Source: Candidatus Omnitrophota bacterium
GTDB lineage: Bacteria > Omnitrophota > Omnitrophia > Omnitrophales > Aquincolibacteriaceae
Direction: 5' to 3'
DNA: 64,000 nucleotides
NCBI GenBank assembly: GCA_022709525.1
Contig: JAKLIQ010000004.1
Span: 73,260 to 137,259, forward strand
Positions 19,334 to 56,853 of the stretch are shown piece after piece. The notes under the pieces were generated by a model that made no database searches, was not told the origin of the DNA, and worked only from the letters and a program-made list of their open reading frames with translations. Each line of letters opens with the position of its first letter. Within the stretch, counting starts at the first letter, position 1. Position numbers and translations under genes: made by a program.

Positions 19334-19361
19334 GCACTATAACTCGTTCAATTTAAAAGAG

Positions 19362-26944: not shown

Positions 26945-26946
26945 CC

Positions 26947-29141: not shown

Positions 29142-29263
29142 GAAAAGAATTTCCAAAAAATCATCGTTTTCGCCGCGATTTTTGGACCATTCTTTGGTTT
29201 TTATGGCTCCTGATCGTCGCGAGTTTTTATTTCTTCGATCTTTTTATCTCAAAACTCAAATAG
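29138..29263 (+). CDS. Candidate 41-aa single-TM micro-protein (MRKEFPKNHRFRRDFWTILWFLWLLIVASFYFFDLFISKLK)
   Basis: Hand-translated; below the 60-aa cut-off of the ORF track. ATGA overlap with the Dpm1-like gene. Basic N-terminus followed by one hydrophobic helix. An in-frame TAG lies 6 nt before the next gene's ATG. Confidence 0.3.
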   Translation: MRKEFPKNHRFRRDFWTILWFLWLLIVASFYFFDLFISKLK

Positions 29264-29269
29264 ATCCCT

Positions 29270-31066: not shown

Positions 31067-31112
31067 TCCTTGAGCTTTGCTCCTTTTTTGTTTTTGTTTG
31101 ATTTCAAGGATT
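31065..31112 (+). terminator. Terminator-like structure: 9-bp inverted repeat AATCCTTGA/TCAAGGATT enclosing a GAGC-TTT-GCTC hairpin plus T-tract
   Basis: Read directly, immediately after the GT-C stop codon and before the phosphoramidate module. Confidence 0.4.
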
Positions 31113-31169
31113 CTCCAGAGTACGCTATTCGCTCAAATGTCTTATTTTGAATCATTAAGAGGATTTTGC

Positions 31170-33518
31170 ATGGTCACGGAATTAATGGGAACAAAAGCTG
31201 AGACTCTGGAGCGAATCGCTTCGCTTTTGACGAGATCGATCGTACAACCTGTCTGCAAATTTACCGTGAGTGAATGGCGTTCGGATGAGAGCGGGTGCCT
31301 CGCTCGCATTCAAAGCCATTTTGCCCATCAGCCTGGTCCTTTTATCGTCCGTTCTTCTGCGATCGAAGAGGATCTGGCCAACCTTTCGAACGCCGGAAAA
31401 TTCACTTCGATCGCAGGGGTCGAGCTAAAAGATCGGTCCAAACTTCGACATGCTATTCAATCAGTAATCGCCTCCTACGGAGAGCTTTCTTCGGGACAAA
31501 ACCAGTTCTTCCTCCAACCCATGGTCAAAGATGTTGCTATAAGCGGCGTTGTTTTCACCCGCGATCTTGACACGCTGTCACCGTACTACATTATCAATTA
31601 CGACGACGCTTCCCATCGCACTGACAGCGTGACATCAGGCAGATCGAATAAACTTAAAACTTTTGTAAAGTTCCGGAATTTCAAGACAAAGAATAGAAAA
31701 TTCGAAAAACTTATGGAGGCAATCGCGGAAGTTGAAACGGTCTGCAAAAGCGACTGTCTTGACATCGAATTCGCCATTGAAAAGACAGGGCAGATCCATC
31801 TTTTGCAGGTTCGGCCTATCGTAACTCGAGGCCGGACACTTCCTAAAGTATTCATGGTTGGTCATTATCTGCACAAGATCTTCATGAAAATCGACCATAT
31901 TAATGCGCCTCACCCCTATCTTCACGGCTGGCGCACCTTTTTAGGCGTTATGCCGGATTGGAATCCGGCCGAGATGATCGGTGTAAAACCGCGGCCTTTA
32001 GCGCTTTCTCTCTATAAGGAGTTGATCACCGATAAGACGTGGTCCTACCAACGTGATGACTACGGTTATCGAAATGTCCGTTCTTACCCGCTTCTGGTGA
32101 CGCTGATCGGTCATCCTTATATCGATGTGCGGGTCAGTTTCAATTCATTCATACCCAAAGGGATCGATGAAGAATTGGCGTCGCGCTTGGCAAATTATTT
32201 CTTGACAAAGCTGCAGGATTCTCCGGCCAGCCATGACAAAGTGGAATTTGATGTTGTTTTTTCCTGCTTCTTTCTCAATCTTGAAGACAAGCTTCAAGGG
32301 CTCAAAAAAAATGGTTTTACGGAAAGCGACCTCAAAAAAATCAAGGACGCGCTGATTGAATTAACCAACAACATTCTGACCCATCATAATGGGATTTTTG
32401 CCAACGATCTCAATAAGATCACCGAATTAGAGGAAAGGCAGCAAAAAGTCCTGACGTCTTCATTGAACCCGATTGAAAAAATTTACTGGCTTTTGGAAGA
32501 TTGCCGCCGTTACGGTACGCTTCCATTCGCCGGGTTGGCGCGGGCAGGATTTGTCGCCGTTCAATTCCTCCGTTCCATGGTTGAAACGAAAGTGATTTCC
32601 CGCGAAGATTTTGATGACTTCATGGCGTCGCTTGATACGATCGCAAAGCAAATGGCGCGGGATCGCAGCGCGCTTTCAAAAGAAAAATTTCTCGCCCGCT
32701 ATGGGCACCTCCGTCCCGGAACTTATGATATCCTCTCCTTAAACTACCGCGAAGGTTATGACCTCTACTTTTCAAATCAGCCTCTTCCCCAGGATCCTCC
32801 TGCTAAGAAAGATTTCCGCTTCAAAGATTCTCAACTCCGAACCCTTGATCTTCTTCTTAAAAAAGAGGGGATTCAAGTAAGCGCTGAGGATCTCATTACT
32901 TTCTTAAGGCAAGCCATCGAGGGAAGAGAATACTCGAAATTCGTTTTTACTAAAAGCGTGAGCGAAATCTTAGGGCTTGTAAAAGAATTGGCGGCCTTTT
33001 ACGAACTCACCCCCGAAGACGCTTCTTTCATTGATATCAAAACCATCTTGCATTTGTATGCAACGCTCGACCATCGCGATCTCTCCTGCATCTTGGCCGA
33101 AGAAATCGAGCGCAACCGCAGTTTCTATGAAATCACCAAATTGATCAAATTGCCGGCATTTATCGTTGAACCTGATAATGCTTTTGAATTCGAACTTGAA
33201 GAGGGAAAACCCAACTACATTACCTTGGGGCGCGCTCGTGGAGAGACGATACTGGAAGAAAATATTTTGACGAGCAATCTCGACGGCAAAGTCGTTCTTA
33301 TCCCAAGCGCTGACCCGGGATATGACTGGATATTCACGCGCCCGCTGGCCGGACTTATTACGATGTACGGAGGCGCTAATTCCCATATGGCCATCCGCGC
33401 GGCTGAACTGCGCATCCCGTCCGTCATCGGTGCCGGTGAAAAAAATTATTCCGAATGGTCCCGCGCCAAATACCTTGAGATTGATTGCGCTAATCAACAA
33501 GTAACGGTGCTCCGATGA
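31170..33518 (+). CDS. PEP-utilising-enzyme-family ATP-dependent kinase (ATP-grasp N-domain plus C-terminal phosphohistidine mobile domain); candidate L-glutamine kinase (Cj1418-like)
   Basis: C-terminal GGANSHMAIRAAELRIPSVIGAG phosphohistidine motif and a PPDK_N-like N-terminus. The ATG at 31170 has an AAGAGGA site upstream; the longer track ORF would run into the terminator. Confidence 0.65.
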   Translation: MVTELMGTKAETLERIASLLTRSIVQPVCKFTVSEWRSDESGCLARIQSHFAHQPGPFIVRSSAIEEDLANLSNAGKFTSIAGVELKDRSKLRHAIQSVIASYGELSSGQNQFFLQPMVKDVAISGVVFTRDLDTLSPYYIINYDDASHRTDSVTSGRSNKLKTFVKFRNFKTKNRKFEKLMEAIAEVETVCKSDCLDIEFAIEKTGQIHLLQVRPIVTRGRTLPKVFMVGHYLHKIFMKIDHINAPHPYLHGWRTFLGVMPDWNPAEMIGVKPRPLALSLYKELITDKTWSYQRDDYGYRNVRSYPLLVTLIGHPYIDVRVSFNSFIPKGIDEELASRLANYFLTKLQDSPASHDKVEFDVVFSCFFLNLEDKLQGLKKNGFTESDLKKIKDALIELTNNILTHHNGIFANDLNKITELEERQQKVLTSSLNPIEKIYWLLEDCRRYGTLPFAGLARAGFVAVQFLRSMVETKVISREDFDDFMASLDTIAKQMARDRSALSKEKFLARYGHLRPGTYDILSLNYREGYDLYFSNQPLPQDPPAKKDFRFKDSQLRTLDLLLKKEGIQVSAEDLITFLRQAIEGREYSKFVFTKSVSEILGLVKELAAFYELTPEDASFIDIKTILHLYATLDHRDLSCILAEEIERNRSFYEITKLIKLPAFIVEPDNAFEFELEEGKPNYITLGRARGETILEENILTSNLDGKVVLIPSADPGYDWIFTRPLAGLITMYGGANSHMAIRAAELRIPSVIGAGEKNYSEWSRAKYLEIDCANQQVTVLR

Positions 33519-34150
33519 AAAAAATCCTCTTAAGCCAACGTTTAATTCAAAATCCAAGTTATCCTGAGATTCGGGAAGCGCTCGACATCCAATGGGGCGC
33601 ATTTCTTTCTAAATGCGGTCTGCTTCCGATCGCATTATCATTCAAAGCCCCGCTTGACGAATATTTCCGTTTGATCAAGCCGGATGGGGTCCTTTTAACG
33701 GGAGGGAACGATCTTGCTTCGCTCAATCCCACGGATCCATTATGCAAGATGCGCGATGAGTTCGAAAGTCGGTTGATCGAGATTGCCGTAAAATCCAAGA
33801 TCCCTCTGCTGGGAGTTTGCCGTGGGGCGCAAATGGTCGCTCATTTCTTTGGATCAACCTTTAAAAAGCGGGATGGCCATGTCGGCATCAACCATCGGGT
33901 GCGTTTCCAAGGACGCGGGATCTTCGAAGCAAACTATTCCCAAAAGACTTTGGTCAATTCGTACCACGGTTTTTGCATTCAAAGCACCGGCAAAGAACTT
34001 CTGACTGAAGGGATTGTGGAGACCGATCAGACCGTGGAAGCCTTTTCTCATAAATCACTTCCGATCTTTGGTATGATGTGGCATCCAGAACGCGTCGACC
34101 CGTTTTTAGTTTCCGATATTTCTTTTTTTAAAAAAATCTTTAAAGCTTAA
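33515..34150 (+). CDS. Class I glutamine amidotransferase-like / peptidase C26 hydrolase; candidate gamma-glutamyl-CDP-amidate hydrolase (Cj1417-like)
   Basis: Cys nucleophile (GVCRGAQM) and His (MWHPER) motifs. 211 aa. ATGA overlap with the upstream kinase. Confidence 0.7.
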   Translation: MKKILLSQRLIQNPSYPEIREALDIQWGAFLSKCGLLPIALSFKAPLDEYFRLIKPDGVLLTGGNDLASLNPTDPLCKMRDEFESRLIEIAVKSKIPLLGVCRGAQMVAHFFGSTFKKRDGHVGINHRVRFQGRGIFEANYSQKTLVNSYHGFCIQSTGKELLTEGIVETDQTVEAFSHKSLPIFGMMWHPERVDPFLVSDISFFKKIFKA

Positions 34151-34158
34151 GGGGTTCC

Positions 34159-34893
34159 ATGCGAGCAATCATATTGGCGGCGGGGGAAGGACAACGCCTT
34201 CGCCCCTTAACACTTGATCGGCCTAAATGCCTTGTGGAATATCAAGGAAAACCGATCATTGATTACCAGATCGACACCATGCGCTCCTGCGGCATCAAAG
34301 ATATCGTTTTGATCAAAGGCTATAAACAGGAAACCCTCCAGCGCCCTAAAGTCCGCTATGTGATCAATCCCGAATATGCAACGACCAATATGGTGGCGAC
34401 TTTATTTTGCGCCGAATCTTATTTTGACGATGATCTTTTGATCAGCTATGGCGATATTCTTTATGGCCGGTCGATCCTGGAACCGGTGCTTGCTTCCAAT
34501 GAGGATTTTGCCGTAGCGGTATCAATGAATTGGAAAGAGCTTTGGCTCAAACGCATGGATGACCCTCTGAAGGATGCCGAGACCATGAAACTCGATGACC
34601 GCGGATTCATCCGGGAGTTGGGCAAAAAACCAAAATCCTACGATGAGATCCAAGGTCAATACATGGGGCTTTTTAAGATCAAGAAAAAAATGCTTCCAAA
34701 GGTCAGAGCTGCTTATCATGATGCAGACAAAAATGCGGTTTATGACGGTAAAAATTATCGGAATATGTTCATGACGAGTTTTATTCAGCTGATGATCGAT
34801 AAAGGTTTTCCGGTCAAAGCCGTCCAAGTCACGGGGGAGTGGCTTGAGATCGATCATCTGGAAGATCTTAAAGTTTCCTGCAAATTCGACTGA
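34159..34893 (+). CDS. LicC-like nucleotidyltransferase; candidate CTP:phosphoglutamine cytidylyltransferase (Cj1416-like)
   Basis: MRAIILAAGEGQRLRPLT nucleotidyltransferase signature. 244 aa. Confidence 0.7.
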   Translation: MRAIILAAGEGQRLRPLTLDRPKCLVEYQGKPIIDYQIDTMRSCGIKDIVLIKGYKQETLQRPKVRYVINPEYATTNMVATLFCAESYFDDDLLISYGDILYGRSILEPVLASNEDFAVAVSMNWKELWLKRMDDPLKDAETMKLDDRGFIRELGKKPKSYDEIQGQYMGLFKIKKKMLPKVRAAYHDADKNAVYDGKNYRNMFMTSFIQLMIDKGFPVKAVQVTGEWLEIDHLEDLKVSCKFD

Positions 34894-34955
34894 ATGCCAA
34901 TCTTTTTAATGCCATTTTATTTGATAATTTTTGTATACTATCGGCCTGAAAACCT

Positions 34956-35681
34956 ATGAAAACTAACGCAAAAACCCAAGTGGTTGCGATCGATGGACCG
35001 TCTTACGTGGGGAAGAGCACCATCTCCAGAGAGTTGGCCGACCGGATGGGGTTCCTTTATGTCAACACCGGACACATGTATCGTGCGATCGGCCGCATCG
35101 CGATCGAAAACAAGATCGACCCCAAAGATGAGACTGCTATTGTCAAAATCGCAAAAACGACCGATTTTAAATTTTTCAGCGGCAAAGGTTTCTGCGGCAC
35201 TGTTGTCAACGGCAAAGACTGGACGCGGGAGCTGGACCATCAAGATATCGTCTTTTTCGCCTCGCGGATCTCGGTCATCCGGGAATTAAGGGATATCCTC
35301 ACAGCTAAACAGCGGGAGTTCTCGCAAGAACATCCAATCGTTATGGAGGGGCGCGACATCGGTACCATTGTGTTCCCTGATGCCATGTGGAAGTTTTACA
35401 TCACCGCTTCCGTTGAGATCCGGGCCTGGCGCATGTTCAAGATAATGACGGAGGAAGAAAAGAAGAAATGCCCTGACTATCACGTCTTGATCCCCAAGAT
35501 CGAAAAACTGGATGAGATCGACCGTAATCGTGAAATCGCCCCCTTGAAACTTGCTGCCGACGCCGTAATCTATGACAATTCAGACAGCCCGACGGAAGTC
35601 CAGGATGCGATCATCCTGCAATATTACATGAATCACAGAGATGAGATCTGTCGAAACTCAGCTCTTCTGAAAAACAAGTAA
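34956..35681 (+). CDS. cmk: Cytidylate kinase-family P-loop kinase
   Basis: IDGPSYVGKST P-loop, NTGHMYRA and GRDIGTIVFPDA motifs; the last closely matches E. coli Cmk (GRDMGTVVFPDA). Confidence 0.8.
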   Translation: MKTNAKTQVVAIDGPSYVGKSTISRELADRMGFLYVNTGHMYRAIGRIAIENKIDPKDETAIVKIAKTTDFKFFSGKGFCGTVVNGKDWTRELDHQDIVFFASRISVIRELRDILTAKQREFSQEHPIVMEGRDIGTIVFPDAMWKFYITASVEIRAWRMFKIMTEEEKKKCPDYHVLIPKIEKLDEIDRNREIAPLKLAADAVIYDNSDSPTEVQDAIILQYYMNHRDEICRNSALLKNK

Positions 35682-35698
35682 ATCGGAAGGGTAAGGCC

Positions 35699-36577
35699 TT
35701 GGAGACTATCGCGGAATTAAGAAAGATCTGCCAAACAACCGCAAAAAAGGACGTTTCAAATGTTTACATGCGGTATGTTTCCCGTTTTTTTTCCATCTAT
35801 CTGACGCGGCTTATCCTTCCTTATCCGGTCACTCCCAATCAGGTCAGTTTCGCCATGATCGTTACCGGAGTGATTGCGACATTCTTTTTCTTAAACCCCT
35901 CAAACCTGATCTTTTTGACCGGCGCACTGCTTCTGCAGCTTTGGTACATCATCGATTGCATGGACGGGGAAGTGGCGCGATACCGACAATACCAGCAAAA
36001 AAAGATCGTTGTTACCGATAAACGGCAATCCGGCATGTCGGGAAAATATTATGACGTGATCAATCACTATATTATCAACCTGCTTGTTCCTGCCATGATC
36101 GGCGTCGGTCTGTTCGAACAAACTGCTAATAAATTCTACATCGTCCTTGGGATTTTCGGCGCCCTTGGGCAGGTACTCACGCTTGCCATGCATGACGGCG
36201 GACATCGAATCACGATCGATAAGCTTATGAAATTCCGCTCGGTTCGAATTTCGGGCGAAATGAGCGGAGATCCTGAAAATCCCATCGATAACTCGAAAGA
36301 GAAACGTAGCCTGGCGCATTGGGCATTCATGATCGTCCATTACACCACAACATATCCGACCGTCATGAACCTCGTTTTGATCGCGGCAATCTTTGAAATC
36401 TTACTGCCGGGCTGGAATTGGCGGATCTCGCTTTTATGGTACCTAACCGCCGCATCCCTCCTTGTCTCGGCGACGATCATCACACGAACGATTGGCCAGA
36501 ATATCTTGGACCGGGAATTTCAAAAGAATTTTCAAGAGATCGAATCTGATGACCCTTCAGGGCCCTCCGGGTCCTGA
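35699..36577 (+). CDS. CDP-alcohol phosphatidyltransferase-family membrane protein (divergent motif)
   Basis: DCMDGEVAR matches D-x2-D-G-x2-A-R. The second half of the motif is divergent (insertion; G-x3-D-x3-H). About 6-8 transmembrane helices. TTG start with a GGAAGGG site upstream; an alternative ATG lies at 35768. Confidence 0.55.
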   Translation: METIAELRKICQTTAKKDVSNVYMRYVSRFFSIYLTRLILPYPVTPNQVSFAMIVTGVIATFFFLNPSNLIFLTGALLLQLWYIIDCMDGEVARYRQYQQKKIVVTDKRQSGMSGKYYDVINHYIINLLVPAMIGVGLFEQTANKFYIVLGIFGALGQVLTLAMHDGGHRITIDKLMKFRSVRISGEMSGDPENPIDNSKEKRSLAHWAFMIVHYTTTYPTVMNLVLIAAIFEILLPGWNWRISLLWYLTAASLLVSATIITRTIGQNILDREFQKNFQEIESDDPSGPSGS

Positions 36578-36616
36578 AGGATGGCTATTTTGCCCTTTCC
36601 CTTAAAACCCTCACGC

Positions 36617-36645
36617 TTGCACTGGATGCCATGTTGCTTTATAAT
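36617..36645 (+). promoter_or_regulatory. Near-consensus sigma70 promoter, TTGCAC-17 nt-TATAAT, directed at the epimerase/heptose genes
   Basis: Hexamers read directly, within a 192-nt intergenic region. Leaves a ~118-nt leader before the ATG at 36770. Confidence 0.55.
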
Positions 36646-36769
36646 CCATCCGGTCCGCGTCTGGCACTTGCCTTGGAAGGTGTTCATTTGATTGCGGTTA
36701 CAGCGTTTTCCTTCCGAATGGTTATTTTCAGATACCAATATGATTCATTAACGGAGAAAGCGATTATTT

Positions 36770-37759
36770 ATGATTAATGCGATGGTGACAGGCGGCGCCG
36801 GTTTTATTGGAAGCCACTTGACCGAATTATTGATCCGCGAGGGGTGTCGCGTAACGGTCCTTGATAATTTTTCGACCGGACGGCGGCAAAATCTGCGATC
36901 TCTAGAAAAAACAAAGAACCTGACCATTCACAAGGCGGATATAAGCCGGTTTGACGCTATTAAGACCCTTTTTAAGGGAGTCGATTATGTGTTCCATCTT
37001 GCGGCCTTAGCGGATATTGTGCCCTCGATCGAAAGGCCGTTAGATTATTACAAGTCTAACGTCAGCGGTACGGTTTCCGTGCTTGAAGCAAGCCGGCGGG
37101 CCGGCGTGAAGCGGTTCCTTTATGCCGCATCTTCTTCATGTTACGGTATTGCGCGGGAATATCCGACCAAAGAGACCGCTGAGATCCGTCCCGAATATCC
37201 TTACGCTCTGACAAAAAATCTCGGTGAACAATGCGCGATGCATTGGAGCAAAGTCTACGGTCTTCCAACCGTATCGCTTCGTCTCTTTAATGTCTATGGG
37301 CCAAGAGCGCGCACTTCTGGAACTTATGGCGCTGTCTTCGGCGTTTTTTTAGCTCAAATGCTTCACAAGAAACCTTTTACGGTAGTCGGGGATGGAACTC
37401 AAACAAGGGATTTTGTTTTTGTAACCGATGTCGCAAAAGCGTTTTGGAAAGCCGCCAATGCCGATATTTCGGGCGAGATCTTCAATATTGGCTCCGGATC
37501 TCCGGTCAGTGTTAATCGGATCACCGAAATCCTTGGAGGTGATGTCGTTTTTGTTCCCAAGCGGCCAGGAGAACCGGATGTGACGCATGCAGATATCACA
37601 AAGGCGAGAAAGGTTCTCGGATGGGAGCCGGTCATAAAGATCGAGGAAGGAATCCAGACGTTGAAAAAAAATATTAATGATTTTAAAAATGCGCCGGTTT
37701 GGACTCCGGACTCAATAAAAGAGGCTACAAAAACGTGGTTCGCTTATTTGAAAGGCTAA
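36770..37759 (+). CDS. NAD-dependent epimerase/dehydratase-family protein (UDP-sugar 4-epimerase-like)
   Basis: VTGGAGFIGSH Rossmann motif and YxxxK. 329 aa, extended SDR fold. Confidence 0.85.
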   Translation: MINAMVTGGAGFIGSHLTELLIREGCRVTVLDNFSTGRRQNLRSLEKTKNLTIHKADISRFDAIKTLFKGVDYVFHLAALADIVPSIERPLDYYKSNVSGTVSVLEASRRAGVKRFLYAASSSCYGIAREYPTKETAEIRPEYPYALTKNLGEQCAMHWSKVYGLPTVSLRLFNVYGPRARTSGTYGAVFGVFLAQMLHKKPFTVVGDGTQTRDFVFVTDVAKAFWKAANADISGEIFNIGSGSPVSVNRITEILGGDVVFVPKRPGEPDVTHADITKARKVLGWEPVIKIEEGIQTLKKNINDFKNAPVWTPDSIKEATKTWFAYLKG

Positions 37760-37760
37760 C

Positions 37761-39326
37761 ATGAGCTCCAAAACCAAGGAAGCAAAGCGTCTTAAGGTCG
37801 ACCATTTCGCTGAAAAAATCAAATCGCTCAACACCCTCGAAAAAACCATCGCAAAAATCAAAAAGAGCGGTAAAAAGGTCGTCCACTGTCATGGTGTTTT
37901 TGACCTGATGCACCCGGGACATATCCATCACTTTTACGCTGCACGTAAAAAAGGGGATTACCTTGTTGTCACTTTGACCAAAGATGAATATGTCGGAAAA
38001 GGGCCTGGACGTCCCGTTTTCAATCAAAGATTAAGAGCGGAATCGGTCGCTGCGGTCGAGTGCGTCGATTATGTTGCCATCAATGAATGGCCTACGGCCG
38101 TGGAAACCATTCGAAAGCTGAAGCCGAACTTTTACGTTAAAGGTATCGAATACGCGGCGCCGGATGAGGATATCACGGGCAATATCCGTCCGGAGCGGGA
38201 AGCGGTTGAAAGTATCGGCGGAAAGCTTGTATTCACAGATGAAGTGCGCTTCAGTTCGAGTAATATCCTTAACACTTATTTCAGCGTCTTTTCCGAAGAA
38301 ACGCGCCTTTTTCTTCAGCAATTCCATAAACGCTACAGCGAAGAAGACGTCATAAAACACTTAAAGGACCTTGAGGGCTTGAAGATCCTTGTTATTGGCG
38401 ATACGATCATCGATGAATACCATTACTGCAAAGCGCTCGGAAAATCTCCGAAAGAAACCATGGTCACTACCAAATATCTCAACTCCGAATCTTTTGCCGG
38501 CGGCGTTCTGGCTTGCGCGAACCATGCGGCTTCATTCTGCGGAAATGTGGATTTGGTTACCTGCCTTGGCCGCGAGAACTCCCATGAAGAATTCATTCGA
38601 AAACATTTAAAACCCAATATCAAGCCCCATTTTTTCTACCGCGAAAATGCTCCAACGATCGTCAAGCGGCGTTTTGTCGAACCGGTCTTTCTTTCCAAAA
38701 TGTTCCAGGTCAGCTTTCTGGAAGATTCCTCGCTTCCCCCTCAAACAGACGAGGCTCTGCGCGCCCATCTTCTTAAGATCCTTCCGAAGTATGACGCTGT
38801 GTTGGTGGCGGATTATGGCCACGGCTTTCTTAGCCCGGCAACGATCGCGCTTTTAGGTAAAAAAGCGAAGTTTCTTGCGGTCAATACTCAAACCAACAGC
38901 GCGAATCTTGGCTTTAACCTTGTCACAAAATATCGTCATGTCGATTATATTTGCATCGATGAACCCGAGATCCGGCTTGCGATGCATGACAAGAGCGGAC
39001 CTTTAGAGCCGCTTATCGAGCGAGTCAGCAAGCTGTTGAAAACAAAAATGGTCATGATCACAAGAGGCCACCTCGGCTCAATCGCTCACAGAAACGGTGA
39101 GGCATTCGCCGCAACGCCTATTTTTTCAAGCGAGATCGTCGACCGCGTAGGGGCGGGAGACGCTTTCTTCGCCGTAACTGCCCCGTGCGCGGCTAAAGGA
39201 TACCCTTCGGATCTGATCGGTTTTATCGGCAATGCAGTGGGAGCTATGGCGGTCCGGATCGTTTGTAACCGTTCCTTCATCGAATCGGTACCATTGTGCC
39301 GTTTTATTTCAACCTTGCTCAAATGA
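37761..39326 (+). CDS. Bifunctional nucleotidyltransferase (HxGH cytidylyltransferase-like, N-terminal) / PfkB-family sugar kinase (C-terminal); HldE/RfaE-like with reversed domain order
   Basis: N-terminus has HCHGVFDLMHPGHI (HxGH nucleotidyltransferase motif). The C-terminus has PfkB motifs (GDTIIDEY..., DRVGAGDAF). Confidence 0.7.
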   Translation: MSSKTKEAKRLKVDHFAEKIKSLNTLEKTIAKIKKSGKKVVHCHGVFDLMHPGHIHHFYAARKKGDYLVVTLTKDEYVGKGPGRPVFNQRLRAESVAAVECVDYVAINEWPTAVETIRKLKPNFYVKGIEYAAPDEDITGNIRPEREAVESIGGKLVFTDEVRFSSSNILNTYFSVFSEETRLFLQQFHKRYSEEDVIKHLKDLEGLKILVIGDTIIDEYHYCKALGKSPKETMVTTKYLNSESFAGGVLACANHAASFCGNVDLVTCLGRENSHEEFIRKHLKPNIKPHFFYRENAPTIVKRRFVEPVFLSKMFQVSFLEDSSLPPQTDEALRAHLLKILPKYDAVLVADYGHGFLSPATIALLGKKAKFLAVNTQTNSANLGFNLVTKYRHVDYICIDEPEIRLAMHDKSGPLEPLIERVSKLLKTKMVMITRGHLGSIAHRNGEAFAATPIFSSEIVDRVGAGDAFFAVTAPCAAKGYPSDLIGFIGNAVGAMAVRIVCNRSFIESVPLCRFISTLLK

Positions 39327-39925
39327 AAGCGACCATGAATATCCGAGACTATTTCTCAAATTTGAAACTTTGCTTAGATGCGGTAGAAGTGCGCGACGAG
39401 AAGCAAAATCTGCTCGCCCCGGACCCCGGCTTTCAACGCGCGATCGAATGGATCGCGGCCGCAGGAAAAAAACATGCTAAAGTGATCTTTGTCGGTAACG
39501 GCGGCAGCGCGGCGATCGCGAGCCATCAGGCGGTGGACCTCTGGAAAAACGGAGGCATTCGTGCGATCGCCTTTAATGATGCGTCGTTGCTCACCTGCGT
39601 CGGCAACGATTACAGTTATCCGGAAATTTTTGAAAAACCGGTCGCTATGTTCGCGGACGCAGACGACGTCCTAATCGCGATAAGTTCTTCCGGCCGATCG
39701 TCCAACATCCTTAAGGCCGCGCAAAAAGCCAAAGAACTTGGCTGCCGCGTTATCACGATGTCGGGATTCAAATCTGACAACCCGCTGCGCCAAGCGGGCC
39801 ACGTGAATTTTTATATACCATCCGATAGTTACGGATTCGTCGAAATCGCACATCTCACCCTTTGCCACTATCTGACGGATCATTTCGTTTCGGCCGCGCA
39901 AAAATTCCGGAAAAGCGGGGATTAA
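39323..39925 (+). CDS. gmhA: D-sedoheptulose-7-phosphate isomerase (SIS domain)
   Basis: SIS-domain motifs (VGNGGSAAIASH, ISSSGRS). ATGA overlap with the upstream gene. Confidence 0.8.
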   Translation: MKATMNIRDYFSNLKLCLDAVEVRDEKQNLLAPDPGFQRAIEWIAAAGKKHAKVIFVGNGGSAAIASHQAVDLWKNGGIRAIAFNDASLLTCVGNDYSYPEIFEKPVAMFADADDVLIAISSSGRSSNILKAAQKAKELGCRVITMSGFKSDNPLRQAGHVNFYIPSDSYGFVEIAHLTLCHYLTDHFVSAAQKFRKSGD

Positions 39926-39938
39926 CCTTCTTCTGAAT

Positions 39939-41006
39939 ATGGATAAATACCGGATCGATAGCCATAAGTTGCTCTATCACGTTGACAGGACCAGTGACTG
40001 GCTTGCCGGAAAGAATATTTATCCTATTTATGCCGAAATTTCTCCCTGCGGGGCATGTAATCACCGGTGCATTTATTGCGGCCTTGATTTCATGAAGTAT
40101 CAATCGCGCCGGCTTGAGACGGCGCTTCTAAAAGAAAGATTGACTGAACTCGGCCGGCTCGGCCTCAAAAGCATCATGTATGCAGGAGAAGGCGAGCCTT
40201 TCCTTCACAAGGATATGGCCGAGATCATTGAACACACAAAAAAATCCGGCATTGATGTGGGAGTTACTTCGAACGCCGTGCTCTTTGATGAAAAAACGGC
40301 GGAACGGACGCTTTCGTGCATGGCTTGGATCAAAGTGAGCATTAACGGCGCCACGCCGGAGACTTACGCGAAAATCCACCAAACTAAACCCGAAGACCTT
40401 GACCGGGTCTTTAAGAATATGGCTTTTGCGGCTCAAACTAAAAAGAAAAACAATTATGCATGCACTTTGGGAATGCAGCTTCTCCTGCTTCCCGAAAATC
40501 ACCATGAAGCTAAGCTGCTCGCCCAAAAAGCCAAAGAAATCGGAATGGACTATCTTGTGATCAAGCCCTACTCCCAGCACCCTTCGAGCTTGACCAAAAT
40601 CTATCAGAACATCCGCTACAGCGACTACGATTATCTTGAGAACGAGCTTAAGGATCTGAACGATAAAAATTTCAACGTGATCTTTCGAGCCCGATCGATG
40701 AAAAAATGGGACGAGGCCGCCCGTAATTACAAGCGTTGTCTGGCGCTGCCATTCTGGACTTATATTGACGCCGGCGGGGATGTGTGGGGGTGCAGCATTT
40801 ATCTTGGGAATAAAGATTTTCTTTACGGAAATATTTATAAGAATACTTTCAAGGAGATCTGGGAAAGCGACGCGAGGAAAAAATCCCTCGAAAAAGTCGC
40901 GACTTGCCTTAATGTTGAAAACTGCCGGGTCAACTGCCGGATGGACGAGATCAACCGCTATCTCTGGGAATTAAAAAATCCTCCGGCTCACGCGAATTTC
41001 ATCTGA
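39939..41006 (+). CDS. Radical SAM protein with C-terminal Cys-rich (SPASM/twitch-like) region
   Basis: CX3CX2C (CNHRCIYCG) near the N-terminus. C-terminal CLNVENCRVNCRMD. Confidence 0.8.
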   Translation: MDKYRIDSHKLLYHVDRTSDWLAGKNIYPIYAEISPCGACNHRCIYCGLDFMKYQSRRLETALLKERLTELGRLGLKSIMYAGEGEPFLHKDMAEIIEHTKKSGIDVGVTSNAVLFDEKTAERTLSCMAWIKVSINGATPETYAKIHQTKPEDLDRVFKNMAFAAQTKKKNNYACTLGMQLLLLPENHHEAKLLAQKAKEIGMDYLVIKPYSQHPSSLTKIYQNIRYSDYDYLENELKDLNDKNFNVIFRARSMKKWDEAARNYKRCLALPFWTYIDAGGDVWGCSIYLGNKDFLYGNIYKNTFKEIWESDARKKSLEKVATCLNVENCRVNCRMDEINRYLWELKNPPAHANFI

Positions 41007-41818
41007 TGAAAAACCAGCTTCTTGCAAAAGCCAACGCGATTCGCGACGAGATCCTCAGGGTCTCAATCAAAAATAAAGCCGGCCACATCGCCCCCTCGCT
41101 TTCATCGGTGGATATCCTGACCGCGCTCTACTACAAGATCTTATCCTACAACCCCAAAAAACCTTTATGGGAAGACCGGGATCGAGTGGTTTTTTCAAAA
41201 GCGCACGGTTGTTACGCGCTTTACGCGATCCTTGCCGATCTTAACGTGATTCCCCGGAAAGAATGGGAAGGCTTTTATACATCGGAAAGTTCGCTTTTGG
41301 GCTGCATGGAGCACCGTCCGGAATATGGCCTTGAGGCAGGATGCGGATCGCTCGGGCATGGGTTGCCGATCGCGGTCGGCATTGCTTACGGCGCTAAGCT
41401 CCAAGAAAAAAAATATACGACATATTGCGTGATGGGGGACGGTGAATTCCAGGAAGGTTCGGCCTGGGAAGCGATCCTTTTTGCGATTAAGCATCAAGTT
41501 TCGAATCTTACGATCCTGGTGGACCACAATCGACTTCAAGCTATGGATTTTGTAAAAAACGTTCTTGATTCCGAGGAAAAAGAACTGATCAAGCGGTTGA
41601 AAGGATTCGGGCTTAATCCGATGCTTTGCCCCGGCCATGATCCTAAGGAGATCGCCGACTGCATCCATGCCGCGCAAAAATCAAATGCTTCGGTACCGGC
41701 GATCGTCGTCGCAGAAACGATCAAAGGATTTGGCCTAAAATGCATGGAAAACGTTCCGAAGTTCCATTTCAGAATCCCGAGCGATGAAGAATTAGCTAAA
41801 GGGAAAAGCTATGGATGA
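41006..41818 (+). CDS. Transketolase, N-terminal (TPP-binding) subunit
   Basis: TPP-binding GDGE and HGxxALY-type motifs. 270 aa, split-type transketolase. Confidence 0.85.
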   Translation: MKNQLLAKANAIRDEILRVSIKNKAGHIAPSLSSVDILTALYYKILSYNPKKPLWEDRDRVVFSKAHGCYALYAILADLNVIPRKEWEGFYTSESSLLGCMEHRPEYGLEAGCGSLGHGLPIAVGIAYGAKLQEKKYTTYCVMGDGEFQEGSAWEAILFAIKHQVSNLTILVDHNRLQAMDFVKNVLDSEEKELIKRLKGFGLNPMLCPGHDPKEIADCIHAAQKSNASVPAIVVAETIKGFGLKCMENVPKFHFRIPSDEELAKGKSYG

Positions 41819-42302
41819 AGCCGTTAACTACCGCAAAGATATTCTAGATCTGTTGATCCCTTATTTCCGGAAAGATAAACGGTATTATCTGCTTCTCTGT
41901 GATATGGGATTTGGAGCTGTGGATAAAATACGCGCGGAGTTCCCGGACCGGGTAATCAATTGCGGCATCATGGAGCAGGGAACGGTCGGCATTGCGGCCG
42001 GTATGAGCCTAAGCGGTCTGATCCCGGTTGTTTATTCGATCGTCAATTTCTTGGTCTATCGCGCTATCGAGCAGGTTCGCAATGACGTTATCCTGCAGGG
42101 CCTGAACGTTAAATTCGTCTCGACCGGCGTGAACGATTATTTTAAATTTCTCGGCCCGTCCCATTGTTGCGGCCAAGACGACATCCGTCTTATGGAATTG
42201 ATCCACATGAAAGTCTACGACCCCTACCAAACAAAAGCCCCTTTTCCTGAATTGGTCAATGATTGGATCCGAGATGCAAAGGCGGGATATCTTCGGGTTT
42301 AA
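41811..42302 (+). CDS. Transketolase C-terminal-side subunit reduced to the pyrimidine-binding domain (163 aa)
   Basis: IMEQGTVGIAAGMSL Pyr-domain motif. Lacks the usual C-terminal TKC domain. Overlaps the N-terminal subunit by 8 nt. Confidence 0.65.
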   Translation: MDEAVNYRKDILDLLIPYFRKDKRYYLLLCDMGFGAVDKIRAEFPDRVINCGIMEQGTVGIAAGMSLSGLIPVVYSIVNFLVYRAIEQVRNDVILQGLNVKFVSTGVNDYFKFLGPSHCCGQDDIRLMELIHMKVYDPYQTKAPFPELVNDWIRDAKAGYLRV

Positions 42303-42308
42303 ACGGGT

Positions 42309-44033
42309 TCAGGCCGTTGTTCGCTGTAATTTGTAGACAAAAATACTTGTGCTCGGAAGTTTACGCGAAACAGCGGGGATTTTGCTAAGCATTTTAAAAA
42401 ACCGGAAAAGAAGAGGCTTTGAATCGAAAAGATCGTATTGCTTCCATAGAGACGCCTCAATCCCGGCGTCCTTGAGGGCGACCAACCTCTCTGGCTGAAG
42501 CGTCCGCGAATAAAGAAAAACAGCCGGCTCCTCCGCTAATCGGTCCTTAACGATCTCGATCCAATCGGACGGCAGATCATACCAATCAACGATCACGGCG
42601 CGACGCTCCAATTCCGTATGGCGTTCATAAAGACTTGTATCCGTCGGCGCTTCGCCGTAAACCAAAGGAAAAATATCTTTCTCCGCCCGCACAAGGGCAT
42701 CCTGCATCCCGCCATAATGACCAAGAAGCTTCGAATAAGTGAAAAAATTTAATAAACACGTCGCGACCACAAGCAGAATTAATGCGCTGAGGAAGACTCT
42801 CGACCTCTTTAGAGATGAGAAGAAAGCCTTTTGCAGCTCATCAAGCGCCAAAAAAAATACGATCAGCGACGGCAAATACGCAAAATTAAGAAAACGGCTG
42901 TCAGTTAACGGCATGCTGGAACAAAATCCGCAGAGGATCGCGACGAACCAGACAAGAAACAGATTGAAATGATGACGCCGGATCTCAAAATCCGGCGGGC
43001 CGGTCGGTGAAGGTTTTCGGAGGTTGAAGAGAAAAAAAGCGACAAAAAGACCGAGCCAGAAAAGAACGCCTAAAAAAAGACCGTAATTTTCGGTAAATGA
43101 AAGCGGATTTCTGCTTCGCCGAAAGATCGATTTAAAGGAAAATTCTCCGTCCGGCACAAAAAAGGTTCGTTGCAAACCATTTTGCCATTTCAACGAAAAC
43201 ATTTTTTTGTCTTTAGGAGCTTCCACTTTGCTGGCTGCGAGATTGTCTTCCGGATTGATCTTCCTCGCAATCTCATTAAAAAAAGTTTTGGAAGGAACAA
43301 CAAGAAAAAAGCTTACCGCCACAACAAAAACCGCGATCGCGGTCTTCAAAAAGCCGATCCTTCGGTAAATCGAACGGCATTGCCAAATAAGGAATCCAAG
43401 ACAAACGACCGGAAGAATCTTCTCGGAGGACTTTAATTTGATCGCAAGCCATACCGAAATAAGCCATAAAAACGCGAGGAAAGAGAATGCGATCACGGAC
43501 TTGGAACGCTGCAAGGTCAAACGGCCGAATAAAAGGATCGCCGTGAGCGACAGAATGGAGATGTAGAATTGAAAATCGGCCGAAAAATCCGAAATAAGCA
43601 TGAAGACATTGCTCGGAAAGGTCAGGTAGAGCGCTACGGCAAGCCAGCCCCAGAGCTTGCGTTTTGTCCAATGTGCGATGATGCCGAATAAAAGAGCGGA
43701 TAAAAGACCGCAGCCGACCGCTGTCACCACGTGGAGAGGCGGCAAGGTGTAGCCCAAGCTATCAAATTCGAATTTCAAAAACAAGAATTGCAGAGGGCGC
43801 AGATAGACCATGAGATCGGTCCGCGAAGTCGGCGGATAAAACCAGGATGGCGTGCTCGGATTCAGTGTAAGCTTGACAAGCTCCCCATAGCTAACCGCGC
43901 CGGTACCGCGAACAACCAGCGGATAGTCCGCATTGAAATCGTAAGGAAGACCGACATAACAGGTAAAAAAGAAAGCGAAGGCGACCAGCGCGACCAAACA
44001 TAGATGAACCGTCAAAGTATCTTTTCTTTCCAT
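42309..44033 (-). CDS. Polytopic membrane protein with C-terminal soluble domain; possible GT-C-type glycosyltransferase/polymerase
   Basis: 574 aa with 10 or more hydrophobic helices. No family motif recognised with confidence. Confidence 0.45.
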   Translation of the reverse strand: MERKDTLTVHLCLVALVAFAFFFTCYVGLPYDFNADYPLVVRGTGAVSYGELVKLTLNPSTPSWFYPPTSRTDLMVYLRPLQFLFLKFEFDSLGYTLPPLHVVTAVGCGLLSALLFGIIAHWTKRKLWGWLAVALYLTFPSNVFMLISDFSADFQFYISILSLTAILLFGRLTLQRSKSVIAFSFLAFLWLISVWLAIKLKSSEKILPVVCLGFLIWQCRSIYRRIGFLKTAIAVFVVAVSFFLVVPSKTFFNEIARKINPEDNLAASKVEAPKDKKMFSLKWQNGLQRTFFVPDGEFSFKSIFRRSRNPLSFTENYGLFLGVLFWLGLFVAFFLFNLRKPSPTGPPDFEIRRHHFNLFLVWFVAILCGFCSSMPLTDSRFLNFAYLPSLIVFFLALDELQKAFFSSLKRSRVFLSALILLVVATCLLNFFTYSKLLGHYGGMQDALVRAEKDIFPLVYGEAPTDTSLYERHTELERRAVIVDWYDLPSDWIEIVKDRLAEEPAVFLYSRTLQPERLVALKDAGIEASLWKQYDLFDSKPLLFRFFKMLSKIPAVSRKLPSTSIFVYKLQRTTA

Positions 44034-44169
44034 AGAATGACGGGGATTGTATCACAGAGAATGCGAAAAAAGAATCTTTGGCTTGGCTTTTTCCGGCATC
44101 TTTGTTATAGTCGGTCCCGAACTTGCTTTTGCAGCAACGCGTGTTTTAAAATAAAAATGAGGCCATATT

Positions 44170-44916
44170 TTGGAAAGAACGATCACTGTCATTATCCCTT
44201 CGTTGAACGAAGAAGGGAATATTGAGAATACATTTACCGAAGTTTTGGAAGCGATCGACGACCGGTTTTCTGATCACGAAATCCTTCTCTTTGATGACGG
44301 CTCTACCGACCGGACCGGCGCCATTATCGATGAATTGGCCGCCCGCCACAAGAACGTCAAAGCCATCCATAACGGGAAAAATATGGGGTTCGGCTATAAC
44401 TTCAAAAAGGGCGTCTCGATGGCCCGAATGAATTATGTGTCCATTATTCCGGGAGACAATGAGATTCTAGGCAGTTCCATCAAAGCCATGTTCTCTCTCG
44501 TTGGATCGGCGGACATTGTGATCCCTTTTACCATGAATATGGAAGTCCGGCCTTTTTCCCGGTGCCTGCTATCCCACCTTTTTACTTTGATTCTGAATAG
44601 CATCTTCCGCTGCATGCTTCATTACTACAATGGTCCCATCATTCACCGGCGCGACGTGATCACGAAAGTTCCGATACAAACCAACGGTTTTGCTTTTCAG
44701 GCCATGGCGCTCGTAAAACTCATCCGAAGCGGTCATTCGTTTGTGGAGGTCGGCATGTATTTGCGGCCGCGGCGATCCAGCCGATCAACGGCTCTTAAGT
44801 TTAAAAATGTGGTCAGCGTCTTCGGAGCCATCGCGAGACTTTTCTGGGAAGTTTGCATTACCAACCGCAACCAATACAGTGTCAGCGTTCAACGCGTAAT
44901 GCCGCAAAAAAATTAA
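44170..44916 (+). CDS. GT2 family glycosyltransferase
   Basis: TVIIPSLNE, DDGSTDRT and PGDNE motifs. Confidence 0.8.
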   Translation: MERTITVIIPSLNEEGNIENTFTEVLEAIDDRFSDHEILLFDDGSTDRTGAIIDELAARHKNVKAIHNGKNMGFGYNFKKGVSMARMNYVSIIPGDNEILGSSIKAMFSLVGSADIVIPFTMNMEVRPFSRCLLSHLFTLILNSIFRCMLHYYNGPIIHRRDVITKVPIQTNGFAFQAMALVKLIRSGHSFVEVGMYLRPRRSSRSTALKFKNVVSVFGAIARLFWEVCITNRNQYSVSVQRVMPQKN

Positions 44917-47544: not shown

Positions 47545-48063
47545 GTGGATGAAACTATGTCGGCACCGGCAAGCATTTTGGCGTTCGGTTTTAGTACTTT
47601 TTTTTGTTGTTTATGCCTGCACGTCCTCCTATGGCGCTTGCGACATCCCCATCATCATGTCGGAGCTCTATTGAGCGTGTTCTTTATCCCTGGCGCTGTT
47701 CTGATTGGGCTCATTGCCCTTGGATGTCGTCAGCTTACTCTTGCCGACCTTGCGGCAATCGCCATTCTTCATACCGCGCTCAGTTGCGCTTATATCCAAA
47801 TTTATCCGGCAAGCCAGGCGGATAGCCCATCGCTAAAAATACTTGTCTTGGTCGGGAGGTCCGAAACAGGACTAACTGCCGAAGAAATCCGGTCTTTTTT
47901 TGATCCAAAAACCCTATTCTCGGACCGGATCCATGATCTTTTAAATGCCAAACTTATTTATCAAAGCGGAGAAAAGCTGGCCCTTAGCTCGAAAGGTGAA
48001 AAAATGATCGCGCCGTTTTTAATGCTTCGAAAAGCCCTGGGCCTTCCGGCGGGGAGGGGTTAA
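47545..48063 (+). CDS. Hypothetical small membrane protein (172 aa)
   Basis: 2-3 N-terminal transmembrane helices and a C-terminal soluble ~70-aa domain. First of two equal-length tandem genes. Confidence 0.45.
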   Translation: MDETMSAPASILAFGFSTFFCCLCLHVLLWRLRHPHHHVGALLSVFFIPGAVLIGLIALGCRQLTLADLAAIAILHTALSCAYIQIYPASQADSPSLKILVLVGRSETGLTAEEIRSFFDPKTLFSDRIHDLLNAKLIYQSGEKLALSSKGEKMIAPFLMLRKALGLPAGRG

Positions 48064-48064
48064 G

Positions 48065-48583
48065 ATGACTTCCCGCTATCTTTTTCTACTGCTCTTATTA
48101 ATAAGTTCGCCCTTCTGCATCTTTTTGCTTCATATCTTCCTTTCAAGGATCTTGCGGAAATTCAAACCTCATATCGCCCCGCTTCCCGTCGCGGCTTTTT
48201 CGGTCCTTTGCAGCTATCCTTTGATGGGTTATGCATTATGGATGTGTTTTCTTAAATTTTTAACAGGAAGCGATGTTTTGGGATTCGGATTATATGCATT
48301 GATCGTTTATACATGTTTTTCGTTCTGCTATTTCATACTTTTTACCATGAGTGAAACGGCCAGAAGGATCCACATCCTTCGAAAGCTCAGGGAAACCGGC
48401 CCTCTTTCCGAAGATGCTCTGGCTGCCGATTATGCCGCTGAGGATATGCTGGATGTGCGCCTAAGACGCATGGTCGAGTTAAAACAGCTGCGCCTCGTTA
48501 AAGACCGTTTTATACTTAAAAACCGGTTGCTCTGGTTAGCAGGGACTGCGCTTTCGGCCTGGGCCAAAGCGCTCGGGTTCTAA
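48065..48583 (+). CDS. Hypothetical small membrane protein (172 aa), probable paralog of the upstream gene
   Basis: Same length and topology. Starts 2 nt after the upstream stop codon. Confidence 0.45.
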   Translation: MTSRYLFLLLLLISSPFCIFLLHIFLSRILRKFKPHIAPLPVAAFSVLCSYPLMGYALWMCFLKFLTGSDVLGFGLYALIVYTCFSFCYFILFTMSETARRIHILRKLRETGPLSEDALAADYAAEDMLDVRLRRMVELKQLRLVKDRFILKNRLLWLAGTALSAWAKALGF

Positions 48584-48735: not shown

Positions 48736-49003
48736 ATGCAAATCAATGAATTTGAGGTCTATACCCCTAAGGAAACGCAGGCGCTGCTCAAAGTAAGTCC
48801 GAGCACGATGATGCGTATGATCAAAAACGGCCTTATAGGGGCCGCAAAGGTTGGGAAGCAATACCGCATCCTGGGTAAAGAGATATTGCGGGTGATCTCT
48901 CCAAAACTCGAGGATAAAGTCGGCAAAGCCTACAATAAGGCACGCCATTGGGTACACGAAGGCATCGATGAGAAACCGTCCCCCAAAAATAAGCACAATT
49001 CTC

Positions 49004-49020
<17 letters not shown>
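48736..49020 (+). CDS. Excisionase/MerR-type helix-turn-helix DNA-binding protein (94 aa)
   Basis: LLKVSPSTMMRMIKNGLIGAAKVGKQYRI has the HTH_17/Xis-family pattern. Confidence 0.55.
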
Positions 49021-51898
<2,878 letters not shown>

Positions 51899-51899
51899 T

Positions 51900-52976: not shown

Positions 52977-52977
52977 T

Positions 52978-53748: not shown

Positions 53749-53749
53749 C

Positions 53750-54379: not shown

Positions 54380-54380
54380 T

Positions 54381-55773: not shown

Positions 55774-55775
55774 AT

Positions 55776-56840: not shown

Positions 56841-56853
56841 CCCGGAGGTTACC

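Follow-up and report, generated by a model that had tools for sequence, protein, structure and literature searches.

We analysed a block of six genes in a 64-kb stretch of DNA (hereafter the window), whose proteins match a 188-kb contig from a metagenome-assembled genome of Candidatus Omnitrophota at 100%. The block occupies positions 36770–42302, and its six plus-strand open reading frames (ORFs) are present at exactly the positions listed beforehand (Table 1). They encode an extended short-chain dehydrogenase/reductase (SDR), a fusion of a nucleotidyltransferase (NT) with a PfkB kinase, a GmhA-like SIS protein, a radical SAM/SPASM enzyme (rSAM355) and the two subunits, TKN and Pyr163, of a transketolase-like thiamine diphosphate (ThDP) enzyme. 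This inventory, from the epimerase-type SDR to the Pyr-only subunit, had been proposed in a first-pass annotation and was borne out by Pfam and NCBIfam. The genes are tightly packed, with gaps or overlaps of 0–13 nt between successive genes. A gap of 1 nt separates the SDR and fusion genes, the fusion and SIS ORFs overlap, base 41006 is common to the rSAM355 stop and the TKN start, and the TKN and Pyr163 ORFs share 8 nt. A promoter and terminator scan of 35600–44300 gave counts no higher than in shuffled sequence; a TTGCAC-17-TATAAT stretch 5′ of the SDR gene, spotted by eye, did not pass the promoter scan. The block sits inside a glycan region of 45 kb or more that is rich in genes for glycosyltransferases of the GT2 and GT-C types, and it is best explained as the union of two conserved sub-modules from a mobile cassette for glycan biosynthesis, carried by an Omnitrophota genome.

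Table 1. Genes of the block and of its downstream flank (window coordinates)
Feature	Position	Strand	Size (residues)	Basis
Extended SDR, GalE/WbpP 4-epimerase type; candidate NDP-heptose epimerase/oxidoreductase	36770..37759	+	329	Pfam Epimerase/GDP_Man_Dehyd 1.4e-66
HxGH nucleotidyltransferase + PfkB kinase fusion, HldE-like, reversed domain order	37761..39326	+	521	Pfam CTP_transf_like 44-142, PfkB 208-499
GmhA-like SIS isomerase	39296..39925	+		Pfam SIS_2/SIS; top NCBIfam match gmhA
Radical SAM/SPASM enzyme (rSAM355), DesII/BlsE-like fold	39939..41006	+	355	Pfam Radical_SAM + SPASM
Transketolase-like ThDP (PP-domain) subunit TKN	41006..41818	+	270	Transketolase_N 4e-30
Pyr-domain-only subunit of transketolase-like enzyme (Pyr163)	41811..42302	+	163	Transket_pyr alone
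Polytopic membrane protein, convergent with the block; probable accessory part	42309..44033	-	574	Orthologues in loci L008, L010
GT2 glycosyltransferase	44170..44916	+	248	Glycos_transf_2 4e-21; weak NCBIfam PgfS, AglJ, ArnC
Two adjacent membrane proteins, common ...YFHF..MSETARRI... motif	47545..48583	+	172 each	Recurrent cassette companions

The transketolase-like pair and the radical SAM enzyme

The first-pass annotation had a transketolase make sedoheptulose-7-phosphate (S7P) for GmhA. Judged from the sequences, this idea is probably wrong: residues of the transketolase active site are lost, linkage of the pair to radical SAM and GT2 genes is tighter than to gmhA, and a pyruvate dehydrogenase (PDH) E1 α/β pair replaces it in sister loci. 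TKN is, by its sequence, clearly of transketolase descent, with 203 bits to the split-transketolase model (cut-off 488) and 168 bits to the N-chain of the split transketolase 6YAK. Pyr163 gives 33.6 bits against the same cut-off of 488 and 48 bits to the 6YAJ C-chain. Neither subunit has predicted membrane segments, and the Transketolase_C domain is absent from the pair.

For residue comparison, 50 TKN and 48 Pyr163 family members were set against the aligned segments of the 6YAK and 6YAJ chains and of human TKT. The ThDP/Mg motif of TKN (GDGEFQEG...DHN) and the cofactor-activating Glu of Pyr163 (GIMEQ) are family-invariant. TKN retains the equivalents of His26, His66 and His261, and Pyr163 that of His473. 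In E. coli TktA, His100 contacts the donor C1-OH, Asp469 the acceptor C2-OH and Arg520 the phosphate; these three and His461, which serve to bind the donor, the acceptor and the phosphate, are conserved from bacterial to human transketolases. All 50 TKN members have Cys at the His100 position, where 6YAK and human TKT carry His. In Pyr163, His461 is replaced by Gly and Asp469 by Leu in 48/48 members, and the protein ends in ...YLRV, two residues short of the Arg520 equivalent, an ending that is invariant in the same 48. The genuine split transketolase 6YAJ keeps THAG...GEDGASHQ.

The Pyr-only gene is not a truncation artefact, which is ruled out by its uniform length: among 1438 homologues, the best 120 are 160–183 residues long (all but one 160–164) and at least 71% identical. 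The family is compact, with 11 representatives (clustered at 50% identity) under E 1e-30 in a full-library HMMER search. Its nearest relatives are ~300-residue ‘transketolase’ C-subunits, which carry Gly at His461 and a residue other than Asp at Asp469 in all eight of those read and in most of those found beside fusion genes. Such ~300-residue subunits adjoin the fusion gene in loci L075, L083, L099, L114, L127, L129, L132, L135 and L137 (proteins P0378–P0412). Based on these residues, the ‘transketolase’ label is doubtful for a large superfamily in glycan loci, where annotations may systematically mislead.

The partner of the pair, rSAM355, carries the motif CNHRCIYC at residues 40–47 and exceeds the Pfam cut-offs for both Radical_SAM (66.5 bits) and SPASM (29 bits). 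Its 4362 homologues are at least 63% identical and nearly all exactly 355 residues long. An AlphaFold (AF2) model built from a 42-sequence alignment (pLDDT 87.3, pTM 0.88) was compared with the PDB using Foldseek. DesII was the best match (E 1.5e-17, TM 0.68–0.70, 14–16% identity), followed by SuiB, BlsE (tenth-ranked), SkfB and anSME. The best PDB relatives by sequence are also BlsE and DesII, and the NCBIfam model rSAM_desII (TIGR04426) gives 39.8 bits vs a cut-off of 450. DesII and BlsE both take a hydrogen from a sugar that is linked to a nucleotide or nucleoside; DesII can also turn a sugar hydroxyl into a ketone by dehydrogenation, and anSME converts a primary alcohol to an aldehyde. The modelled likeness to DesII and BlsE fits a carbonyl-forming step ahead of the ThDP enzyme, without proving such a step.

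The heptose-type front end

The NDP-heptose module of the first-pass annotation holds at the level of protein families, in matches to HldE, HldA, HldC and GmhA, while the scores lie below cut-offs, the fusion has a reversed domain order and the Glu65 position of GmhA is Asp. An NDP-heptose-type front end, yet a divergent one on these three counts, is the best family-level reading of the sequences. The SDR–fusion–SIS trio is kept across phyla at 45–65% identity.

For the fusion, NCBIfam gave HldE at 151 bits (cut-off 521), the heptose-1-phosphate adenylyltransferase model rfaE_dom_II at 100.5 (181.5) and rfaE_dom_I at 98.5 (345), and the PDB matches were the CTP:phosphoethanolamine cytidylyltransferase ECT (70 bits), HldA (52) and HldC (49). 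The order of domains is NT–kinase, with HldE model positions 320–469 aligned to query residues 18–171. As the first-pass annotation would have it, the kinase domain sides with the heptose-7-phosphate kinases: its rfaE_dom_I match spans model positions 3–298 of 315, vs scores of 39 bits for ribokinase and 25 for 1-phosphofructokinase, and its best PDB relative is HldA. The NT domain is closer to ECT than to HldC, and where the STTR5 motif aligns it has ...EVRFSSSN..., with no fit to the (F/L)XXGRSTT motif of PMC11573728. CDP is a possible nucleotide of the fusion product. The family is large (7950 matches), and the best 120, from Omnitrophota, Nitrospirota, Elusimicrobia and PVC bacteria, are all at least 57% identical.

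The SIS protein probably starts at the ATG at 39326, giving 199 residues, with homologues of 186–204. Its top NCBIfam model is gmhA (TIGR00441, 96 bits vs a cut-off of 209.45). The best 13 of 15 PDB matches are phosphoheptose isomerases and the last two DiaA, and no KpsF/GutQ match appears in the NCBIfam ranking, in agreement with the GmhA assignment made beforehand. The protein retains GNGGS, GNDY, the Ser-rich phosphosugar loop ISSSGRS and the His180 equivalent. Glu65 and His180 (E. coli numbering) are the catalytic residues of GmhA; the Glu65 position is Asp here and in all 20 aligned family members (HQAVDL vs HFAEEL). At family level, the kinase is nearest to HldA and the SIS protein to GmhA, both heptose enzymes, with no resemblance to ribokinase or KpsF/GutQ; the NCBIfam and PDB rankings rule out a Kdo/ribokinase alternative for the front end.

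The SDR scores 184 bits to NCBIfam galE vs 128 bits to heptose_epim, both under cut-off. Against the HldD model TIGR02197, it reaches 127.7 bits with a cut-off of 274.6 and is outscored by the galE, LegB, RmlB and TviC models. The top PDB matches are UDP-sugar 4-epimerases (6dnt, 188 bits). The motif SSS...YxxxK is present and the Asp-Glu dyad of RmlB-type dehydratases is absent. Despite failing the heptose 6-epimerase model, the SDR could still have an HldD-analogous role, and its orthologues (53–80% identity) flank the fusion gene or the radical SAM/transketolase-like cassette in many loci.

The lack of GmhB noted in the first-pass annotation was confirmed: no HAD/GmhB-type gene was found in the window by Pfam on every long ORF or by tblastn with the GmhB-like protein of a related locus, and no GmhB in the 9–10 kb past either window end. 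A free (unphosphorylated) ketose substrate would account for both the absent GmhB and the lost phosphate residues of the transketolase-like pair; this idea is weakened by the Ser-rich phosphosugar loop of the SIS protein. The proposal that the module is self-contained did not hold, as the transketolase-like pair occurs without GmhA or the kinase and the same organism carries a canonical gmhA + hldC set ~8 kb before the window start. This second set lies at 16016–17081 of contig L139 (~7.8–8.9 kb before window position 1), which is 99.98% identical to window 1–8183 (an 8.2-kb overlap). Its hldC is canonical (rfaE_dom_II 190 bits, over the 181.5 cut-off) and its gmhA near-canonical (198 of 209 bits), which makes the window copies a specialised, divergent second set of paralogues. 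The L139 genes are adjoined by thiE, a PfkB kinase that is not HldA and a NudE-like Nudix hydrolase.

Distribution of the cassette and its proposed chemistry

Two sets of loci were surveyed. The Pyr163-anchored set comprised 49 loci from species-representative genomes (55–82% identity), with counts taken among the 29 that have at least 6 kb upstream; the fusion-anchored set comprised 80 metagenome loci plus 4 others, with counts among the 27 that have at least 12 kb of flank. Pyr163 loci span many bacterial phyla, candidate phyla radiation (CPR) lineages and DPANN archaea. TKN adjoins Pyr163 in 29/29 loci, and an rSAM355 orthologue is found in 22. A fusion orthologue occurs in 13/29 (18/29 including a more distant NT–PfkB type), an SIS gene in 15/29, and SIS is usually present where a fusion gene adjoins the Pyr163 type. 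Nine of the 29 loci have a gene of the heptosyltransferase family GT9 with no fusion, SIS or kinase within 10 kb. A GmhB-like gene occurs in 2/29 and PDH-E1 α/β in none of the 29. Since a fusion-type or GT9 gene is present in 27/29 loci, the transketolase-like pair is tied to heptose biology and not specifically to GmhA. On the 3′ side of Pyr163, GT2 and a paralogous 367-residue SPASM radical SAM gene are each found in 19/33 loci with at least 3 kb downstream. A TKN–Pyr163–radical SAM cassette was seen in DPANN (Undinarchaeota, Nanoarchaeia) and CPR (Levybacteria, Peribacteria) loci L025, L026, L028 and L029; protein identity of ~65% across bacteria and archaea indicates its recent inter-domain transfer.

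A two-subunit ThDP enzyme is present in 22/27 fusion-anchored loci, and its type varies: Pyr163 in 2, other transketolase-like pairs in 10 and PDH-E1 α/β pairs in 13. Against PDH E1 models, the subunits of an E1 α/β pair score 313 and 320 bits. E1 α/β likewise has the rSAM355 orthologue as a neighbour, and in locus L002 the E1 α/β genes lie between the rSAM355 orthologue and GT2, the position of TKN–Pyr163 in the window. Pyr163 and E1 α/β never occur in the same locus. E1 α/β and transketolase-like pairs as a whole are not fully interchangeable, both being present in 3/27 loci. As a PDH-type E1 cannot make S7P, the role common to the alternative ThDP enzymes is more plausibly two-carbon (C2) transfer onto a sugar. 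For the ThDP flavoenzyme YerE, such branching of activated keto-sugars has been shown, and for the E1 α/β-like AviB1/B2 and Pau11/12 it has been proposed (PMC4753412).

Taken together, our data suggest a specialised NDP-heptose front end joined to a radical SAM/ThDP tailoring pair that yields a modified sugar for GT2-mediated export, a reading to which we give a probability of about one half; its substrate, order of steps, two-carbon chemistry and destination are its inferred parts, whereas gene content, family placement, residue losses, translational coupling, co-occurrence and likeness of fold are directly shown. In this pathway, the GmhA-like SIS protein would convert S7P to heptose-7-phosphate, and the kinase domain would form the 1-phosphate, with C7 left to a phosphatase encoded elsewhere or to none. 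The NT domain would then form NDP-heptose, which the SDR would epimerise or oxidise. Next, rSAM355 may create a carbonyl on the activated sugar, by oxidation or dehydration, to which the transketolase-like enzyme would add a C2 unit of the glycolaldehyde/ketol type, giving a branched or chain-extended higher sugar. The GT2, the 574-residue protein and the two 172-residue membrane proteins, with GT-C-type enzymes close by, would move the product toward the envelope. More speculatively, and only as a tentative proposal, rSAM355 would oxidise NDP-heptose to a carbonyl and the minimal ThDP enzyme would add a two-carbon ketol to give a C9 sugar or a hydroxyacetyl branch. This would be a previously undescribed route, on a cassette spread horizontally among uncultivated anaerobes of the Omnitrophota, Nitrospirota, Elusimicrobia and CPR and among DPANN archaea, where it would decorate the envelope.

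Several points weigh against the tailoring pathway. Transketolases usually take aldehyde acceptors, which makes chain extension a more natural outcome than branching at a ketone. The residue mapping is a motif alignment with roles carried over from E. coli and yeast transketolase, and a different mode of sugar-phosphate binding is still conceivable for the minimal enzyme. Peptide-modifying SPASM enzymes (SuiB, SkfB, anSME) share the DesII-like fold and score nearly as well. In the surveys, E1 α/β and a transketolase-like pair are found together in the three fusion-anchored loci mentioned above, a canonical split transketolase lies close to the fusion gene in one locus (L130), and the loci come from pattern-seeded searches that favour close relatives, many on short contigs, so that counts are approximate and absences soft. 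A literature search returned general precedents only (PMC4753412, PMC11573728), with no description of the cassette and no experimental paper on any member.

We also weighed other roles for the pair. A minimal but working split transketolase might supply S7P to GmhA and so free heptose synthesis from the host pentose-phosphate pathway, the later changes to NDP-heptose being made by the radical SAM enzyme and the SDR. The ancestry of TKN, the intact ThDP-binding and cofactor-activating residues, the usual presence of SIS where fusion and Pyr163 type adjoin and the canonical split transketolase of L130 are in keeping with this. CPR and DPANN often have reduced central metabolism, and a private S7P source would help in those that carry the cassette. 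Such a supply role is nonetheless unlikely: the equivalents of His100, His461, Asp469 and Arg520 are missing in every member, the E1 α/β pair unable to make S7P holds the same position in sister loci, the pair stands beside GT9 and radical SAM genes in the nine loci with GmhA and kinase absent within 10 kb, and its translational coupling is to the radical SAM gene and not to the SIS gene. We judge as similarly improbable that the enzyme C2-extends a non-standard aldose to an unusual ketose phosphate (cf. lincosamide octulose), which the GmhA-like protein isomerises and the fusion activates to an NDP-sugar other than glycero-manno-heptose. An altered acceptor site would suit a non-standard aldose, the front-end proteins are far under equivalog cut-offs with Asp invariant at Glu65, no GmhB lies nearby, and canonical gmhA and hldC elsewhere in the genome would leave room for a different substrate here. 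Against this, PDH-E1 α/β would yield 1-deoxy-ketoses, which an aldose-ketose isomerase of the GmhA type cannot use, the transketolase-like pair occurs without SIS or fusion genes, and the SIS protein keeps its GmhA-typical Ser-rich loop and GNDY motif.

A late or peripheral role, in which the radical SAM/ThDP pair acts after transfer on a polyprenyl-phosphate- or polymer-linked sugar, or makes a C2 acyl (glycolyl/acetyl) glycan substituent, also seems improbable to us. TKN–Pyr163 is indeed most regularly accompanied by the GT2, the second SPASM radical SAM protein of 367 residues and the two small membrane proteins, and minimal loci hold only these. The acceptor-site changes are hydrophobic (Leu, Gly) with phosphate-binding residues lost, and the window has several pairs of GT2 with PMT_2 (GT-C) genes typical of lipid-carrier glycosylation. 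On the other side, the pair has no linked gene for an acyl carrier, a lipoyl domain or an acyltransferase, the enzymes closest to rSAM355 in structure act on soluble nucleotide sugars, and the subunits are without predicted membrane segments.

The radical SAM and minimal ThDP cassette attached to heptose genes is widespread and uncharacterised. On the basis of these domains, genes in public databases carry the label ‘transketolase’ or ‘HldE’ by the thousand, and our data suggest that the former label is functionally wrong for the Pyr163/TKN family and its ~300-residue sister family in glycan loci. Reconstructions of metabolism in which such organisms are given a pentose-phosphate transketolase may therefore err, notably for sparse CPR and DPANN genomes. 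If the tailoring pathway is true, a radical SAM + ThDP pair acting on activated heptose would be new carbohydrate chemistry, and a 163-residue Pyr-only subunit would be a naturally minimised scaffold for a ThDP carboligase. NDP-heptoses are ALPK1 agonists (PMC11573728), and a reversed-order HldE paralogue, possibly CTP-dependent, widens the range of candidate NDP-heptose producers and products.

Neighbouring genes and known systems

The 574-residue protein had no Pfam match even at E = 5, and a GT-C-like transferase is our conjecture for it. In L008 and L010, the two loci that most resemble this one, its orthologues (40–42% identity) have a corresponding location. A 538-residue membrane protein likewise gave no match in a relaxed Pfam search. 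The GT2 downstream likely uses the block's sugar, possibly transferring it onto polyprenyl phosphate, and is 53% identical to the GT2 that follows E1β in L002 and L003. The two 172-residue proteins have no Pfam match, relaxed search included; their homologues (clusters sm172, c12, c19 and c57) come after TKN–Pyr163–GT2 in many phyla, CPR bacteria among them.

Directly upstream of the block, window 31077–36577 holds a gene set like that for O-methyl phosphoramidate (MeOPN) in Campylobacter. It encodes a PRK05849/Cj1418-type kinase (953 bits, over cut-off), a glutamine amidotransferase resembling gamma-glutamyl-CDP-amidate hydrolase (Cj1417-type, 187 bits vs a cut-off of 250), an NTP_transf_3 cytidylyltransferase-like protein and a Cmk-type kinase, then a CDP-alcohol-phosphotransferase-like membrane protein (DCMDGEVAR motif), which, as a conjecture, might pass phosphoramidate on from CDP-amidate. 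None of the other cassette loci examined has these genes as a set. On the other side, window 48968–57927 is a nonulosonic-acid cluster (pseudaminic/legionaminic-like) with a DegT aminotransferase, a PseB-like dehydratase, a CMP-sugar cytidylyltransferase, GT28-C, WbqC, a PIG-L deacetylase, NeuB and a pair of formyltransferases, of which one has the N-formyltransferase C-domain. It also contains the third SPASM radical SAM gene of the window, at 56854–57927, whose product is only 26% identical to rSAM355.

Pairs of GT2 with PMT_2 (GT-C) genes are unusually dense, at window 14527–16913, 26806–31066 and 62308–63720 and in L138 past the window end; GT-C genes number at least 4 in the window, with more just past it. 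This arrangement suggests several parallel periplasmic glycosylation systems based on lipid carriers. A 1109-residue protein at 23615–26944 ends in a class I methyltransferase of ~200 residues, preceded by ~900 residues without a family match. The G+C content falls from 0.50–0.55 in window 1–20000 to 0.45–0.49 in 20000–64000, and the drop coincides with the start of the dense glycan region. The step at ~20 kb is consistent with horizontal acquisition of that region.

Of known systems, the ADP-L-glycero-β-D-manno-heptose pathway (GmhA, HldE or HldA + HldC, GmhB, HldD) shares four families with the block, namely SIS, PfkB, HxGH NT and extended SDR. The block differs in its NT–kinase order, sub-cut-off scores, Asp for Glu65, absence of GmhB and an SDR nearer to GalE/WbpP than to HldD, as well as in an NT domain that scores higher to the CTP-dependent ECT than to HldC and in the canonical gmhA/hldC kept separately. 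For the NDP-heptose biosynthetic enzymes of Tang et al., the summary in PMC11573728 lists three heptose biosynthetic enzyme (HBE) architectures, and the NT–kinase order is not included among those it lists.

The split-chain transketolase of Carboxydothermus hydrogenoformans (6YAK/6YAJ) is similar in having two genes, Transketolase_N and Transket_pyr folds, the ThDP/Mg motif, the activating Glu and three of the four N-domain histidines. Here, by contrast, the β subunit has 163 residues without a C-terminal domain, His100 is changed to Cys, His461 to Gly and Asp469 to Leu, Arg520 is absent, and the family has a conserved His-Cys-Cys motif. The split-chain enzyme is found in pentose-phosphate contexts, whereas the pair described here lies in glycan loci and is coupled to a radical SAM gene.

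AviB1/AviB2, Pau11/Pau12 and YerE (yersiniose) resemble our case as ThDP enzymes among nucleotide-sugar genes, and the sister loci carry a PDH-E1 α/β pair of this kind. The proposed logic, an acyl-anion equivalent added onto a sugar carbonyl, is the same. Those enzymes are of E1 or acetolactate synthase ancestry, whereas the transketolase ancestry here suggests a ketol/glycolaldehyde donor instead of pyruvate. In addition, the sugar here would be of the heptose type, and its carbonyl is proposed to come from a radical SAM enzyme and not a 4,6-dehydratase. DesII and BlsE resemble rSAM355 in fold and are its top PDB sequence matches, and rSAM355 carries a Cys-rich C-terminal domain of the SPASM/twitch type; identity is 14–17%, and the cut-off of the curated DesII model is not reached.

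Finally, the capsule locus of Campylobacter jejuni has heptose genes beside the phosphoramidate genes Cj1415–Cj1418, and the window likewise places a Cj1418-type kinase, a Cj1417-type hydrolase and a cytidylyltransferase directly upstream of a heptose-type block. The heptose genes of C. jejuni are of the HddA/HddC type, whereas those of the window are of the HldE type, and Cj1415 and the Cj1421/1422 transferases are replaced here by the Cmk-like kinase and the CDP-alcohol-phosphotransferase-like protein.

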